Shown here: one piece after another, positions 10,085-19,011 of the stretch | Position numbering within the stretch: the stretch's first letter is position 1 | Layout of the letters: each line of letters starts with the position of its first letter | Assembly (NCBI RefSeq): GCF_010122465.1 | Contig: NZ_WLZY01000005.1 | Coordinates: forward strand, 218,901 to 242,900 | Direction of reading: 5' to 3' | Length of the DNA: 24,000 nucleotides | Source: Phytoactinopolyspora mesophila | Lineage (GTDB): Bacteria; Actinomycetota; Actinomycetes; Jiangellales; Jiangellaceae | Program-made: the position numbers and the translations under genes | Notes under the pieces: generated by a model | What the model saw: only the letters and a program-made list of their open reading frames with translations | Told to the model about the DNA's origin: nothing | Databases searched by the model: none

Positions 10085-10089
10085 CCACC

Positions 10090-10208
10090 GTGATCGTGAG
10101 TGGTTTCCTGCCCTTTCCCCAGTGATCGTGAGCGCGATCACGTCGTCATGGCGTCCAGGATCCGCTCATGATCACGGGCGTGTGGAGCGGGATCCTGATC
10201 ACGATCAC
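10090..10208. repeat. 119-bp nested inverted-repeat element, copy E1
   Basis: Four copies of a 12-mer: GTGATCGTGAGt (10090-10101, +), GTGATCGTGAGC (10122-10133, +), GCTCATGATCAC (10164-10175, inverted) and GATCACGATCAC (10197-10208, inverted). The geometry is the same as the element at 18481-18599. It shares the 20-mer TCCGCTCATGATCACGGGCG (10161-10180) with 18585-18604. It starts 5 nt after the mcm stop. Confidence 0.8.
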
Positions 10209-10260
10209 CGGCTGTGGCGATAGAGTGTGGCGCTGTCCGCAGGGCAACGGGAGGAACTTG

Positions 10261-10971: not shown

Positions 10972-11076
10972 TCCTCTGCGCAGAGTGGGCTTGAGCGACC
11001 GACAGCGTCCCACACCGGATCAAGGGCTGTTATTCTACCGTGGTCCGGACCCCGACATGTCGAGGTGTATGGAGAT

Positions 11077-12135
11077 ATGCGCAGGACGTCCCGTATCGCA
11101 GCCTGTGTCGCACTGGTTGCCGGGGGCTCGCTGGCGTTGACTACGGTGGCCGCAGCCGATCTGCCTGGCGGGGACAACGATGGCGAGTCTGGGTACTACG
11201 TCGAAGTCGGCGTCGATCTCAGCGGCGACGCCGCGCCCGATGGCGGGGGTTACTACAGTTTCTATATCCCGCCGCTGTGCTATTGGGGTCCGTTCCGAGG
11301 TTTGGCTGACGGGCCGGATCATGGTGACGGAACCGACATGCAGAAGGTTCTGGACTACATGGAGTACGCCTATAACATCCCGCTGAAGGATGGCTCCGGA
11401 TATTGGGTGCCGTACTACGGGCCGTTGAGTCGTTACGAAGAAGCCCTCGAGCGGGAAGAAGATGGCGAGGACCTCATCTGGTACTCCCTATACTGCAACA
11501 TTCACTACGGAGACGAGCGCGCCATCGAATTCGCCGATGGGGAGTACAACGGCGGCGCGCTACTCACCGGCCTGCGGACTCAGGGCGAAGAGCCCGAGAT
11601 CCTGATCGACCCCGAGGATCTGGCAGAGGCGGCTCGGGATGAGATGGTGATCGACCTCCCGGACATCGATCGCAATCCGCAGATGGCTGGTTCCAATGCG
11701 GGCGCGACGCTGGTCAACATTCCGACCTGGTTCTGGGTGACCAACCCGGACAGCGTGGGTGGCCCGGATGGTGAACGCAATATCCGCGCGGAGGTAGTCG
11801 GCGGTGATGTGTGGGCGGAGGTCACAGCCCAGACCGGGGGGTTGTCGATCGGCTCGCCGAACGGCAGCGCGTTCTGTGATCCGTCGGTTGCCCTGATCGA
11901 GTGGGGTGACGACGCGAGTGACGACGACGCCTGCACGGTGAGTTTCAGCCGCGCCTCGGTCAGCTACCCGGACGGCTACCCGGTCACCGCGTCCACCGAA
12001 TGGTCGGCGACCTGGGAAGGTGTCACCCAGGACGGTGAGGCGGTCGGCGGCGATCTTGAGCCCCTTTCCCGGCAAGCCGCTCCGGTTGATATTCCGGTGG
12101 CGGAGATCCAGTCGATCGTGCGCGGGTTGCGTTGA
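11077..12135 (+). CDS. Secreted Cys-containing protein, uncharacterised family (paralog S2)
   Basis: In-frame starts are GTG at 11065 (track) or ATG at 11077, which gives MRRTSRIAACVALVAGGSLALTTVAAA|DLPGG. The C-terminal half is ~85-90% identical in protein to S3 and clearly homologous to S1 (VNIPTWFWV, FCDP...DDACTVSF, SYPDGYPVTASTEWSATWEG, VAEIQSIVRGLR). Confidence 0.8.
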   Translation: MRRTSRIAACVALVAGGSLALTTVAAADLPGGDNDGESGYYVEVGVDLSGDAAPDGGGYYSFYIPPLCYWGPFRGLADGPDHGDGTDMQKVLDYMEYAYNIPLKDGSGYWVPYYGPLSRYEEALEREEDGEDLIWYSLYCNIHYGDERAIEFADGEYNGGALLTGLRTQGEEPEILIDPEDLAEAARDEMVIDLPDIDRNPQMAGSNAGATLVNIPTWFWVTNPDSVGGPDGERNIRAEVVGGDVWAEVTAQTGGLSIGSPNGSAFCDPSVALIEWGDDASDDDACTVSFSRASVSYPDGYPVTASTEWSATWEGVTQDGEAVGGDLEPLSRQAAPVDIPVAEIQSIVRGLR

Positions 12136-12150
12136 GGATTCGGAGCCGAG

Positions 12151-13206
12151 ATGCCGAGACCTGCACCAGGCAAGCGGAGGACCATTAGCAGCGGAACTGG
12201 GCTCGCGCTCGCGGCCGCGGTTTCGCTGGCTTTGCCCGGGATCGCCGTGGCCGATCTGCCCGGAGGCGGTGACGACGACGGGTACACGGTGGCCGTCAAT
12301 GTCCGGTTCAGCGGCGACGCCGCGCCGGGCGGCGGTGGCAGCTATACGGTCTACGTACCGCCCATCTGCTGGTGGGAACAGATGCCGAGCAACAACGTGG
12401 ACCCCACCGATCCGGAAGCGGTCTACGAGTACTACATGGAAGAAATCAGGGGCGGTGGTCGTACCCCCAGAGAAGTTCTCCAGTGGCCGGACGAAGAAGT
12501 CTTCCTCGATGCTATCGAGCGGGAAGAGAACGGCGAGAACATCACCTGGTACTGGATCTCCCACCGCTCGGCCAATCGGGCTCCGTGTTCGCCGCAGATA
12601 CGTGACTACGGGGATAGCTGGAACAACGCGATCGTGATCTACTCCCCGTTCGCGCACAACGAGCCGCCGGAGCCGGCGGTGGATCCGGAGGTTCTGGCGG
12701 AGGCGGCTCGAGATCGGATGGTGATCGATCGGCCGGAGGTCGATCGCAATCCGAAGATGGCTGGCTCCAACGCGGGGGCGACGCTGGTCAATGTGCCGAC
12801 CTGGTTCTGGGTGACCAATCCGGACAGTGTGGGTGGACCGGATGGCGAGCGCAGTATTCGTGCGGAGGTTGTTGGTGGCGACGTGTGGGCCGAGGTGACG
12901 GCGCGGACGGGTGGCCTGTCGATCTCATCACCGAGTGGGAACACATTCTGTGATCCGTCGGTGGCCGTGGTCGCGTGGGGTGATGGCGCCAGCGACGACG
13001 ATGCGTGCACGGTGAGTTTCAGCCGGGCCTCGGTCAGCTACCCGGACGGTTACCCGGTCACCGCGTCCACGGAGTGGTCGGCGACGTGGGAAGGCGTGAC
13101 CCAGGACGGCGAAGGGGTCGGTGGGGACCTCGCGCCGCTGTCTCGCCAAACGAGCGTCGACGTACCGGTGGCCGAGATCCAGTCGATTGTCCGGGGTCTG
13201 CGCTGA
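12151..13206 (+). CDS. Secreted Cys-containing protein, uncharacterised family (paralog S3, tandem duplicate of S2)
   Basis: 351-aa ORF beginning 15 nt after the S2 stop, with GGAG 5 nt upstream. Signal peptide ...LALAAAVSLALPGIAVA|DLPGG. It shares the DLPGG..SGDAAP.GGG.Y..Y.PP.C.W N-terminal block and the C-terminal domain with S2. Confidence 0.85.
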   Translation: MPRPAPGKRRTISSGTGLALAAAVSLALPGIAVADLPGGGDDDGYTVAVNVRFSGDAAPGGGGSYTVYVPPICWWEQMPSNNVDPTDPEAVYEYYMEEIRGGGRTPREVLQWPDEEVFLDAIEREENGENITWYWISHRSANRAPCSPQIRDYGDSWNNAIVIYSPFAHNEPPEPAVDPEVLAEAARDRMVIDRPEVDRNPKMAGSNAGATLVNVPTWFWVTNPDSVGGPDGERSIRAEVVGGDVWAEVTARTGGLSISSPSGNTFCDPSVAVVAWGDGASDDDACTVSFSRASVSYPDGYPVTASTEWSATWEGVTQDGEGVGGDLAPLSRQTSVDVPVAEIQSIVRGLR

Positions 13207-16073: not shown

Positions 16074-17206
16074 CCCGCGTGGTGGGATGGTTGCGCCGCG
16101 TCGTGCCGACGCTCGTAGCGCTGGGGGTGGCCCTGGTCGTCACCGCGTTGTTCATCCTGATCATCGGTGAGAACCCGTTGCGTGCGGTGGGCGCGTTGTT
16201 CGACTTCGGCGACACCTCGGTAGCTCAGGCGAACTCGATCGGTGTATGGATCAACCGGGCCGCACCGCTGTTTCTCGCCGGGCTAGCCGTCAGCATCGGC
16301 TTTCGGATGGGCCTGTTCAACATCGGCGTCGAGGGTCAGTATCGGGTGGCCACCGTGGTGGCAGCCGGGGTGGGCGCCGCGATCGTCTTGCCAGCTCCGC
16401 TGCACGTCTTCGTGATCGTCATCGCGGCGATGGCTGCCGGCGCCGCCTACGCGGCCATCCCGGCCGTCCTCAAGGTCACCCGTGGCGTCAGTGAGGTCAT
16501 CTCGACGATCATGCTCAACGCCATCGCGATCGGCTTGGTCGCCTGGCTGGTCCGGGTGCCCTTCGTCGATCCCGAGCTGGGCCCGGGTGAGATCGTCGCC
16601 ACCCGCCGGATCGAGGAGTCAGGGCACTTCCCTGGCCTGAACGAGTTGTTCGGTGTGATTGGCCTGGAAGAGCCCCGGCGCCCGGTGCACGGCTTCGTCA
16701 TCGTGGCGATCGTCGTCGGCATCATCATGGCCATCGTGCTCAGCCGGGCGCGGTTTGGATTCGAGTTACGGGCCAGCGGCCTCAACGCGCTGGCCGCCAC
16801 CGCCAACGGTATCTCGTCGAAGGCGATGATCCTGAAAGCGATGCTGCTGTCGGGAGCCCTCGCCGGACTGGTGGGTTTGCCGGATCTGCTCGGATCGGCG
16901 CATCGATTCCATGCTGACTCGTTCGTCGCGGGGTACGGATTCACCGGCATCGCGGTAGCGCTGCTGGGACGAAATCGCCCTGTCGGGATCGCCTTCGCTG
17001 CCTTGCTGTTCGCCTTCCTCGACCGGGCCGGTCCTAGCTTGCAGTCCGAGGGTATTCCGCCCGCCGCGGTGACGATCATGCAGGGAATCGTCGTGTTGTC
17101 GGTGCTGATCGTCGACGAGGTGGCCCGGCGTGGGCTTCTGCGCCGCGAGGAACGAAGGGCCCGGAACCAGGATCGGGATGCCGTGACCGAGGAGGTGCCG
17201 TCGTGA
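16070..17206 (+). CDS. ABC transporter permease (BMP-family system, first permease)
   Basis: 378-aa polytopic hydrophobic ORF. Its ATG overlaps the ATPase stop (ATGA, 16070-16073). Confidence 0.88.
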   Translation: MTRVVGWLRRVVPTLVALGVALVVTALFILIIGENPLRAVGALFDFGDTSVAQANSIGVWINRAAPLFLAGLAVSIGFRMGLFNIGVEGQYRVATVVAAGVGAAIVLPAPLHVFVIVIAAMAAGAAYAAIPAVLKVTRGVSEVISTIMLNAIAIGLVAWLVRVPFVDPELGPGEIVATRRIEESGHFPGLNELFGVIGLEEPRRPVHGFVIVAIVVGIIMAIVLSRARFGFELRASGLNALAATANGISSKAMILKAMLLSGALAGLVGLPDLLGSAHRFHADSFVAGYGFTGIAVALLGRNRPVGIAFAALLFAFLDRAGPSLQSEGIPPAAVTIMQGIVVLSVLIVDEVARRGLLRREERRARNQDRDAVTEEVPS

Positions 17207-18477
17207 CCGGTCAACCCGCCATGCCGATTCAGACAGAGCCCGACGGCGTCAAGTACCAAGTGTCGCGGGTGCAAAAGGCGCTATTGATCGCCGGACTCGG
17301 CTTGGTGGCCATCTCGGCGGTGCGTGTCATCACCGGTGAGACGGTATTGACCAGCAGCGGGACGGCGCGCGCGATGCTCACGCTCGCCCTGCCCATCGCG
17401 ATGTGCGCGCTGGGCGGACTGGTCGCCGAGCGGGCCGGTGTCATCAACATCGGTCTCGAGGGAATGATGATCCTCGGCACCTGGGGTGCGGGGTTCGGCG
17501 GCTGGCAGTACGGCCCGTGGGGAGCGCTGCTCGGCGCGCTCATCGGCGGCGCGCTCGGTGGGCTGCTGCATGCGCTGGCCACTGTGACCTTCGGTGTCGA
17601 CCACATCGTCAGCGGCGTGGCCATCAACCTGGTGGCAGCCGGATTGGTGCGCTTCCTGTCCGAAGCCGTGTACGCCGACAGCACAGAGGGCGGCGGGCCA
17701 ACCATGTCTCCGCCGCTGGGTTCGGTGGACACGTTCAACATTCCGATCCTGTCGTCCGGTCCAAACCTGCTCAGACGGCTGGAAGATACCGATCTGCCGG
17801 TGCTTTCCGACCTCGGCGGCATCTTGCACGGACTCACCAGCGGTCTTACGGTGTTCACGCTGATCATCGTCGCCATGATCCCGCTCGCGTGGTTCGTGCT
17901 GTGGCGCACGGCGTTCGGGCTGCGGCTGCGCTCGGCCGGGGAGAGCCCGGTCGCGGCGGAATCGCTGGGTGTCAATGTCTACAAGATGAAGTATCTGGCC
18001 GTGACCGCCAGCGGTGCGCTGGCCGGCCTCGGTGGGTTCATGCTGGTTATGTTCGAGCAGTCCTATCGGGAGGGGCAGACCGGGGGGAGAGGCTACATAG
18101 GTCTGGCGGCCATGATCTTCGGGAACTGGCGACCAGGCGGTCTCCTCGCCGGCTCCGGGCTGTTCGGTTACGCGGATGCGGTTCGGCTGCGGGCATCGAC
18201 GTCCGCGGCAGTGCTGGCGCTGCTTCTGCTTGTCGGGCTGATCCTCGCGGCTGTGGGCGTGTGGGATCTCTACCGGCGCCGGTACGTGCTCAGCGCTGTC
18301 CTGCTGGTGCTTGCCGGGGCAACCATCCTGGCGTGGGGGACACTCGACGCGCTGCCGCGTGAGGTCACCACCATGACGCCGTACCTGGTGACCCTGGCTG
18401 TGCTGGCGACTGCCACTCAACGGCTCAGGCCGCCGGCGGCCGACGGTATGCGGTACCGCCGGGGCGAAGAACATTAA
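17203..18477 (+). CDS. ABC transporter permease (BMP-family system, second permease)
   Basis: 424-aa polytopic hydrophobic ORF. Its GTG start overlaps the preceding stop (GTGA, 17203-17206). Confidence 0.88.
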   Translation: MTGQPAMPIQTEPDGVKYQVSRVQKALLIAGLGLVAISAVRVITGETVLTSSGTARAMLTLALPIAMCALGGLVAERAGVINIGLEGMMILGTWGAGFGGWQYGPWGALLGALIGGALGGLLHALATVTFGVDHIVSGVAINLVAAGLVRFLSEAVYADSTEGGGPTMSPPLGSVDTFNIPILSSGPNLLRRLEDTDLPVLSDLGGILHGLTSGLTVFTLIIVAMIPLAWFVLWRTAFGLRLRSAGESPVAAESLGVNVYKMKYLAVTASGALAGLGGFMLVMFEQSYREGQTGGRGYIGLAAMIFGNWRPGGLLAGSGLFGYADAVRLRASTSAAVLALLLLVGLILAAVGVWDLYRRRYVLSAVLLVLAGATILAWGTLDALPREVTTMTPYLVTLAVLATATQRLRPPAADGMRYRRGEEH

Positions 18478-18480
18478 CCG

Positions 18481-18599
18481 GTGATCATGAGCTGATTCGC
18501 GCTGGCGGCGCCGGTGATCGTGAGCAATATCCGGCCGCTATGGTGACTCAGATTTGCTCACGATCACCGGACGTGGAGCAGATTTCCGCTCATGATCAC
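18481..18599. repeat. 119-bp nested inverted-repeat element, copy E2
   Basis: GTGATCATGAGC (18481-18492, +), GTGATCGTGAGC (18514-18525, +), GCTCACGATCAC (18556-18567, inverted) and GCTCATGATCAC (18588-18599, inverted). The outer pair and the inner pair are each perfectly complementary (12/12). It starts 3 nt after the permease TAA stop and ends 28 nt before the cdd ATG. Confidence 0.85.
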
Positions 18600-18627
18600 G
18601 GGCGGGGATGACGGGAGGACATGAGGG

Positions 18628-19011
18628 ATGAACGAGACTTTCGACTGGGTGGGATTGCGCGCGGCGGCCGCGGAAGCGTCGTACCGGGCATACGCGCCGT
18701 ACTCGTCGTTCCCTGTGGGCGCGGCCGCACTGGTCGACGACGGCCGCCTCGTCACCGGCTGCAACGTGGAGAACGCGTCGTACGGGCTGACGTTGTGTGC
18801 CGAATGTGGCTTGGTGTCGTCCTTGATCGCCACCGGCGGAGGCCGCCTGGTGGCGTTCAGCTGTGTGGGTGGTGAAGAGCGTGAGACGATCATGCCGTGT
18901 GGGCGTTGCCGGCAGCTGCTGTGGGAGCACGGGGGCCCGGAACTGCTCGTAGACACCCCCGAGGGCGTGCTGAGCATGTCGCAGGTGCTTCCGCAGGCGT
19001 TCAGCCTGTGA
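18628..19011 (+). CDS. cdd: Cytidine deaminase (small homotetrameric type)
   Basis: 127-aa ORF with the zinc-binding motifs CAECG and PCGRCRQ at the spacing typical of Cdd. Confidence 0.93.
   Translation: MNETFDWVGLRAAAAEASYRAYAPYSSFPVGAAALVDDGRLVTGCNVENASYGLTLCAECGLVSSLIATGGGRLVAFSCVGGEERETIMPCGRCRQLLWEHGGPELLVDTPEGVLSMSQVLPQAFSL

Follow-up and report, generated by a model that had tools for sequence, protein, structure and literature searches.

A nested hairpin at a permease-cdd junction is a member of a dispersed repeat family with a candidate nuclease partner

The 24,000-nucleotide (nt) stretch of the Phytoactinopolyspora mesophila genome analysed here (the window, to which all positions without a contig name refer) carries an unusual element between the last permease gene of an importer and the cytidine deaminase gene cdd, within a string of nucleoside-salvage genes. 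The element contains four copies of a 12-base motif, GTGATCRTGAGC, in the orientation ++-- (18481-18599). With up to one mismatch this motif occurs eight times in the window, always inside this element or a second one at 10090-10208; shuffled windows average 0.5 such matches, and none of 100 shuffles reached eight. We find that the junction element, hereafter copy 2, belongs to a dispersed family of hairpin repeats and was inserted here in one lineage only, and we describe a candidate partner for its family, a nuclease that joins an AbiEi-like winged helix-turn-helix (wHTH) domain to a DUF559 domain. In what follows, G000 is the source genome, G001-G004 are four congeners, and C followed by a number is a contig, of G000 where no other genome is named.

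Anatomy of the junction element

The junction has the following features, listed by position, strand and basis of assignment.

17203-18477, + strand: last importer permease gene (BPD_transp_2), from the list of open reading frames; Pfam PF02653, E = 3e-34; stop codon TAA at 18475-18477
18479-18601, no strand assigned: whole element, copy 2, GAGC subtype, nested four-motif form, CGGTGATC...GATCACGG; from the nhmmer family match C23:237379-237500, the sequence and folds
18481-18492, + strand: motif 1, outer left arm, GTGATCATGAGC; motif search
18514-18525, + strand: motif 2, inner left arm, GTGATCGTGAGC; motif search
18526-18555, no strand assigned: central 30-nt loop region with a degenerate form of the GTCGC-TATA-GCGAC family tip; family consensus and sequence
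18556-18567, - strand: motif 3, inner right arm, exact complement of GTGATCGTGAGC; motif search
18588-18599, - strand: motif 4, outer right arm, exact complement of GTGATCATGAGC; motif search
18613-18619, + strand: GGGAGGA, likely the cdd ribosome-binding site, intact 3′ of the insertion; sequence, with the role inferred
18628-19011, + strand: cdd (cytidine deaminase), Pfam PF00383; ATG at 18628

As an earlier note on this DNA had described, the element occupies the 150-nt gap between permease and cdd and ends 28 nt 5′ of the cdd ATG, and both pairs of arms are complementary at 12/12 positions, the exact complements lying at 18556-18567 and 18588-18599. The 12-mer end arms, matching 12/12, give copy 2 terminal inverted repeats. 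Its motifs are spaced 33/42/32 from start to start, the conserved unit continues for two bases beyond the outer motifs on each side (CGGTGATC...GATCACGG, 18479-18601), and the tail 3′ of the element is G-rich. The element is built from units of about 33 nt. The two CAGATTT copies of the earlier note are present, at 18549-18555 and 18579-18585, one base before the positions given there. Folded as RNA, the region forms a single nested hairpin (-74.2 kcal/mol, z = -5.2); as single-stranded DNA the corresponding values are -40.3 kcal/mol and z = -6.4.

A family dispersed through the genome

The source genome (6.5 Mb, 66% G+C, 99.5% complete) contains 176 exact motifs in 83 clusters, and three rounds of nhmmer recovered 185 family loci, which fall by motif into 75 of the GAGC subtype, 93 of the CAGT subtype and 17 mixed. 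The best genomic partner of copy 2 is only 77% identical to it. The earlier note had suggested possible regulatory roles for the element in the nucleoside-salvage gene string, which fit poorly with the same element type standing at about 185 unrelated loci.

Several architectures recur. The form of copy 2, ++-- with a spacing of 33/42/33 and a length of about 122 nt, is found in about 26-35 copies; others are +- with a spacing of 74-75, +- with a spacing of 42, and ++- or +-- with a spacing of 31/44, the last built on a variant motif, GTGATCGTCAGT. The consensus of the four-motif form is a long palindrome in which each arm comprises the 12-mer and about 10 further nucleotides, with GTCGC-TATA-GCGAC at the tip. 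Flanks of about 15 nt add a C-rich leader on the 5′ side and a G-rich trailer on the 3′ side, and the foot, (C)GGTGATC, is invariant. These flanks extend the stem more within a copy than between copies (5.63 versus 5.06 of 12 positions).

The second element in the window is a family member of the same four-motif kind:

10088-10210, no strand assigned: copy 1 of the family, 3′ of the methylmalonyl-CoA mutase stop codon; motifs at 10090 and 10122 (+) and at 10164 and 10197 (-)

Within copy 1, a degenerate additional half-site (10164-10208, the GATCACGATCAC region) produces a ++--- pattern, and the outer right arm, GTGATCGTGATC, holds two GATC sites. A third family copy lies at C23:217792-217904, about 1 kb before the start of the window, so that this 25-kb neighbourhood holds three copies.

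Placement relative to genes was assessed with gene calls from a crude caller based on G+C content at third codon positions, which cover 83% of the genome. Element bases lie inside called genes in 18% of cases, versus 83% genome-wide, and copies are mostly intergenic. They sit close behind genes, with a median distance of 11.5 nt from stop codon to element and about 63 nt from element to the neighbouring start. The 181 copies that could be placed occupy 96 tandem, 57 convergent and 28 divergent gaps; genome-wide, gaps are 61% tandem, 19% convergent and 19% divergent, and the copies are about 1.6-fold enriched in convergent gaps. For 41 motifs, the TGA within GTGATC is itself the stop codon of the adjacent gene. 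The corresponding peak in stop-codon offsets comprises 36 cases, any other offset accounting for six or fewer, and in one stop-donating example compared with the congeners, element sequence replaces C-terminal codons of the G000 protein. Stop codons donated to 41 genes are relevant for the annotation of gene 3′ ends.

Presence and absence among congeners

cdd and the upstream permease gene are conserved in all four congeners. In G003 and G004 the permease stop is separated from the cdd start by about 35 nt, with no element, whereas G001 and G002 have a hairpin element of another kind there, about 90 nt long (L026:1386-1476 and L028:1385-1475), with arms that start AAATGATCATGTGAAGTAGG. The GTGATC element at the cdd junction is present in G000 alone of the five species. 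The earlier note had suggested comparing orthologous junctions, and held that unrelated sequence there, with transcription reading through unchanged, would mark the element as a neutral repeat; junctions that lack the element or carry an unrelated one are the first half of that outcome. This junction has been occupied repeatedly and independently by different hairpins (G001 and G002 versus G000), and no nuclease gene flanked by the G001/G002 junction hairpin type was found among the loci fetched.

Other sites show the same variability. Copy 1 is missing at the orthologous site in 4/4 congeners. At another site G003 keeps the foot of the same element, so some insertions seem older than the species split. 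G000 has 43 matches to the exact hairpin pattern and G003 has two, while G001, G002, G004 and a reversed control all give 0; diverged family copies are found by BLAST in G003 only, where they are many. Insertion boundaries are approximate, because congener intergenic DNA is too diverged and synteny is often broken at the elements. At one position where G000 has an element copy, G003:C37 (L052:1340-1460) has some 120 nt that are almost entirely runs of C and then runs of G. This tract is either a copy with extreme C/G tails or an artefact of assembly across a hairpin.

Searches against known element classes

Several known classes did not account for the family. Rfam 15 gave no family at the gathering score or at permissive thresholds, the best sub-threshold hits reaching 17-19 bits against a cut-off of 50. 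A RAYT or IS200 Y1 HUH transposase (PF01797) had no match in the genome, and control genomes did match. The copy 2 region contains no sigma-70-like promoter, and no U-tract terminator-like site was found on either strand in 18300-18750. Between neighbouring copies there is no transposase or other recurrent gene besides the wHTH-DUF559 nuclease, and genes of this nuclease are the only ones that the hairpins bracket. Mycobacterial MIRU-type units lie within operons as direct repeats of 40-100 bp in tandem, where they overlap stop and start codons; we rejected this class, as the elements here are inverted-repeat hairpins and not head-to-tail arrays.

Nuclease genes bracketed by hairpins

G000 has four paralogues of a gene of about 340 codons, with 40-44% identity among them, and each stands between two hairpins of a type peculiar to it. 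Each paralogue is single-copy, and the four hairpin types are all dispersed, at about 100, 10, 13 and 15 places. The link to copy 2 comes from the gene at G000:C12:324061-325089, whose brackets are the GTGATCGTCAGT / GTGATCGACAGT variant of copy 2's family, in a +-- form like that of dispersed copies. Another G000 nuclease is encoded at C23:277414-278505.

The N-terminal half of the protein is an AbiEi-like wHTH (PADLOC AbiEi models, E = 1e-9 to 4e-16; AbiEi_4 in 30/45 homologues). The C-terminal domain is Vsr-like, of the PD-(D/E)XK kind, with DUF559 in 27/45 homologues (best 3e-6) and MTES_1575 in 21/45, as judged by PF04480 or PF18741. Conserved S-x-x-E, D, E-x-D and H motifs are consistent with the DUF559 pattern, and the AlphaFold model of the nuclease has a predicted local distance difference test (pLDDT) score of 93; no NCBIfam model matches it. 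The genes next to the nuclease differ between genomes: fumarase and thioredoxin-like genes in G003, lipoprotein and glycogen phosphorylase genes in Jiangella, and a glycosidase-like gene and IclR in G000. We also considered a type IV toxin-antitoxin system, AbiE, and rejected it: the neighbours of the nuclease gene are hairpins and unrelated genes, with no paired AbiEii.

Bracketing by hairpins extends beyond this genome. Homologues of the nuclease occur in 49/58 genomes of the order, and in 15 of the 27 homologue loci fetched, the same hairpin of 43-57 nt stands on both flanks, with a sequence particular to each locus; Jiangella mangrovi is a named example. As a control, a shared flank repeat was present in 3/400 random G000 genes of similar size, and two of those three were themselves distant DUF559-like genes with their own hairpins. 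The closest G003 homologue (GCA_011320225.1, Phytoactinopolyspora; 57% identical) lies between nested four-motif elements that have a 75-nt stretch in common at 98.7% identity, and G003 has about 40 further, dispersed copies whose identity to the nuclease-flanking one is 73-88%. A retrieval from one genome per species that used the GAGC hairpin pattern alone returned 19 loci. In three of them, from three Mycobacteriales metagenome-assembled genomes, a homologue adjoins an exact GTGATCATGAGC hairpin, and two of these have GTGATCATGAGC hairpins on both sides of the homologue.

The hpD family is confined to G000, where its solo copies reach 97-98% identity with those on either side of the nuclease gene nucD, and the nucD homologues of the congeners (61-63%) are flanked by different hairpins. 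In the family of copy 2, the CAGT subtype, which flanks an intact nuclease gene, is the more homogeneous, with a median nearest-neighbour identity of 84.9% versus 78% for GAGC (P = 5e-19).

Further observations concern the nuclease loci themselves. The two distant DUF559-like genes among the control genes, at G000:C12:94639-95643 and C25:110978-112042, each lie between copies of a separate hairpin, about 67 nt long and G-rich in its tails, and the count of nuclease-hairpin pairs in the genome thereby rises to at least six. Five 17-nt units (GGCGCAGTACGTCTAGT-like; G000:C12:323815-323900) in a head-to-tail array adjoin the left hairpin of the C12 nuclease gene, and G-rich imperfect repeats lie beyond its right hairpin. 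In 16/26 loci of nuclease homologues, a DnaA-box-like motif, T[TC][AG]TCCACA (in most cases TTGTCCACA or TTATCCACA), precedes the gene by 56-100 nt and so stands between its start codon and the upstream hairpin, one of them at G000:C23:277340-277420; the chance expectation is about 0.005 per locus. The motif could serve in a promoter or in autoregulation, or could be a genuine DnaA box. Separately, the 326-codon gene at G000:C1:1296641-1297621 has a 71-nt repeat on its flanks (91.5% identical), with no obvious resemblance to the hairpins of the nuclease-linked families.

A proposed origin for the element

We consider it probable that the element is a copy of a dispersed REPIN-like or MITE-like hairpin family (MITE, miniature inverted-repeat transposable element), inserted in this lineage, with the wHTH-DUF559 nuclease as its candidate partner. 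The insertion would have entered a spacer of about 35 nt, probably co-transcribed with cdd, at a point 1-3 nt 3′ of the permease stop codon. We infer that the AbiEi-wHTH and DUF559 protein may bind the invariant GGTGATC-containing 12-13-mer at the base of the hairpin and nick there, after which hairpins would be copied, moved or homogenised, a putative parallel, with an unrelated enzyme, to the action of RAYT on REPINs. Recognition of the repeats by wHTH-DUF559 nucleases, and their propagation or maintenance by them, would be the likely mechanism. Transcribed as part of the importer-cdd message, the element would fold as a long hairpin that could guard the mRNA upstream against exonucleases acting from the 3′ end, or have a partial polar effect on cdd; a stabilising or partly terminating effect on the mRNA is possible, and what we expect at the cdd junction is a passive or mildly modulating RNA hairpin.

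A broader proposal is more tentative, and we lean somewhat against it: that wHTH and DUF559 nucleases are the dedicated enzymes of a second, RAYT-independent REPIN-like class, each paralogue copying or homogenising its own bracketing hairpin type. If this were true, the 119-bp element would be a non-autonomous member of a cognate nuclease-hairpin pair, a genome with at least six such pairs would be a natural test bed, and orphan repeats of the BoxC type could gain an enzyme.

Several observations weigh against the reading that we consider probable, a mobile hairpin family with a nuclease partner. The first group concerns pairing. Across 26 copies of the four-motif form, some 77% of arm positions are pairable, and copy-specific pairing shows no excess over arms shuffled between copies (z = 1.0-1.4). 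The innermost hairpins have a small pairing excess, 86.3% versus 84.8% for CAGT and 78.8% versus 76.3% for GAGC (z = 2.5 and 3.2), a weak signal that shared descent among copies could also give. The GAGC copies are old, as the distant best partner of copy 2 illustrates, and copy 2 may be a decaying relic. Target-site duplications of 5 bp or more, which would be a signature of transposition, are lacking: across 164 copies, the two flanks share k-mers of 5-8 nt about as often as flanks paired at random. On the side of the enzyme, the GAGC subtype flanks no nuclease gene in G000, where only the CAGT variant does so; the Pfam DUF559 scores of the G000 paralogues fall just below the curated cut-offs; and the sequence matches to structures in the PDB are marginal (3hrl, E = 0.017; 3r3p, E = 0.23). 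Finally, the association has no direction, and a nuclease cassette could land in hairpins or travel with them.

The pairing data also bear on a detail of copy 2. The earlier note had taken the seventh base, which differs between the outer and inner pairs and is complementary within each, as what selection for pairing would lead one to expect; across the four-motif copies this base is discordant in 9/26 outer and 7/26 inner pairs, which does not support that argument. Copy 2 is simply a well-preserved family member. A comparison of nested with cross pairing (P = 0.02) was set aside, as it reflects only the differing consensus of the outer and inner units.

Alternative explanations

The best-surviving alternative, which we regard as unlikely, is that the hairpins spread or persist by other means and the nuclease is a passenger or a homing-type selfish gene, for which hairpins are landing sites or cassette ends and which targets the repeats but does not multiply the solo copies; in a variant, solo copies could be scars left after gene loss by recombination between direct flanks. 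The flanks are indeed direct repeats of complete hairpins (the nucA brackets are +-- on both sides, and those in G003 have the 75-nt direct match), and the closest G000 and G003 homologues are not syntenic, which indicates that the cassette itself relocates. Direct-repeat flanks and non-synteny together mean that the cassette may be the mobile unit, with solo hairpins as its derivatives or landing sites. The weak profile match to the Vsr-fold homing endonuclease I-Bth0305I (3r3p) and the persistence of GAGC copies in G000 without a GAGC-flanked gene point the same way. The paralogues, however, are single-copy, and their hairpins number from 10 to about 100 copies; the near-identity of solo hpD copies to the gene-flanking copy suggests recent copying of the hairpin only; and homogeneity is greater in the subtype whose flanked gene is intact. 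No clean empty site of a nuclease cassette was recovered.

It is rather improbable that these are structural elements kept by the host in the manner of Escherichia coli REP or BIME, serving as two-way transcript-end or mRNA-stability hairpins or as nucleoid-protein sites, with an incidental link to the nuclease. Such a role would suit the tight placement behind stop codons, the enrichment in convergent gaps (57/181 versus 19% genome-wide) and the very stable folds, and the TGA at each end limits harm to the neighbouring gene. It accords less well with the lack of a U-tract or terminator-like site, with differences in presence between close species at the same junction, with the decay of many copies seen in their incomplete arm pairing, with the 28 copies in divergent gaps, or with bracketing of nuclease genes far above the control rate.

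Least of all do we credit a locus-specific attenuator, insulator or four-site operator that decouples cdd-MFS-deoA from the importer: the element takes up the sole sizeable gap of the gene string and its four motif spacings are close to whole helical turns, but the same element type stands at some 185 unrelated loci, congeners with the same gene string lack it or have an unrelated hairpin in its place, and it matches no promoter or terminator consensus and no Rfam family. The comparative data largely refute that reading. With it goes a tempting but wrong regulatory story about the cdd junction, which has just received a mobile hairpin.

Other features of the window

Apart from the hairpin elements, the window contains two adjacent paralogous genes (11065-12135 and 12151-13206) upstream of a gene for a BMP-family binding protein; 300-nt stretches of the two (11608-11907 and 12682-12981) are 82% identical.

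Relation to known systems

Dispersed palindromic repeats are common in bacteria, and to our knowledge only REP/REPIN repeats have a known enzyme, RAYT. The present family resembles the REP/REPIN-RAYT system (PMC3116915, PMC3337134, PMC2817692) in its short extragenic palindromes, its tens to hundreds of copies, its doublet or nested hairpins, its single-copy enzyme gene bracketed by its own repeat and its several cognate pairs per genome. It differs in having no Y1/HUH transposase, the candidate enzyme being a wHTH with a DUF559 PD-(D/E)XK nuclease. The foot of the REP hairpin carries a conserved GTAG or CGTC tag (PMC3733652), whereas no such tag occurs here and the invariant end is GGTGATC after a C-rich leader. 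The elements here, moreover, abut or supply stop codons, and the closest enzyme homologues are non-syntenic between species.

The BoxC/PIT/TM triplex repeats (PMC4666352) are likewise orphan GC-rich palindromes with G-rich tails and no known enzyme, and the work on BoxC and TM reports finding no mobility genes at their sites (PMC4666352). Intrastrand triplex formation calls for three successive blocks, one rich in G, then its C-rich complement, then a mirror copy that is again G-rich. Our family has a C-rich leader and a G-rich trailer, and a third mirror-repeat block was not seen, no triplex finder having been run. Its core is a sequence-specific 12-mer hairpin, not a homopurine/homopyrimidine tract, and its taxon is the Jiangellales.

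MITEs such as Correia/NEMIS, RUP and ERIC are about 100-150 bp long, have inverted ends, lie between genes, are co-transcribed, fold in mRNA and vary in presence. The elements described here are like them in size, inverted ends, intergenic sites, probable co-transcription, the capacity to fold in mRNA and variable presence, and unlike them in showing no target-site duplication and no transposase-bearing parent with the same ends. On the enzyme side, the C-terminal domain of the nuclease has only marginal profile matches to the Vsr-fold homing endonuclease I-Bth0305I (3r3p) and a DUF559 protein (3hrl), and its acidic and histidine motifs are like those of DUF559; unlike Vsr-fold homing endonucleases, its gene is free-standing, with an AbiEi-like N-terminal half, and not in an intron or intein.

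Full-text searches of a literature library in which only 25 papers mention DUF559 found none linking it to dispersed repeats. DUF559 does appear, in a table row, as enriched among predicted inversion targets, with an odds ratio of 14.3 (PMC9881135), and palindromes on both flanks of a DUF559 gene would explain that enrichment. In the one genome studied here, several hairpin families are each matched to a nuclease gene that they bracket, and closely related species do not carry the same pair.
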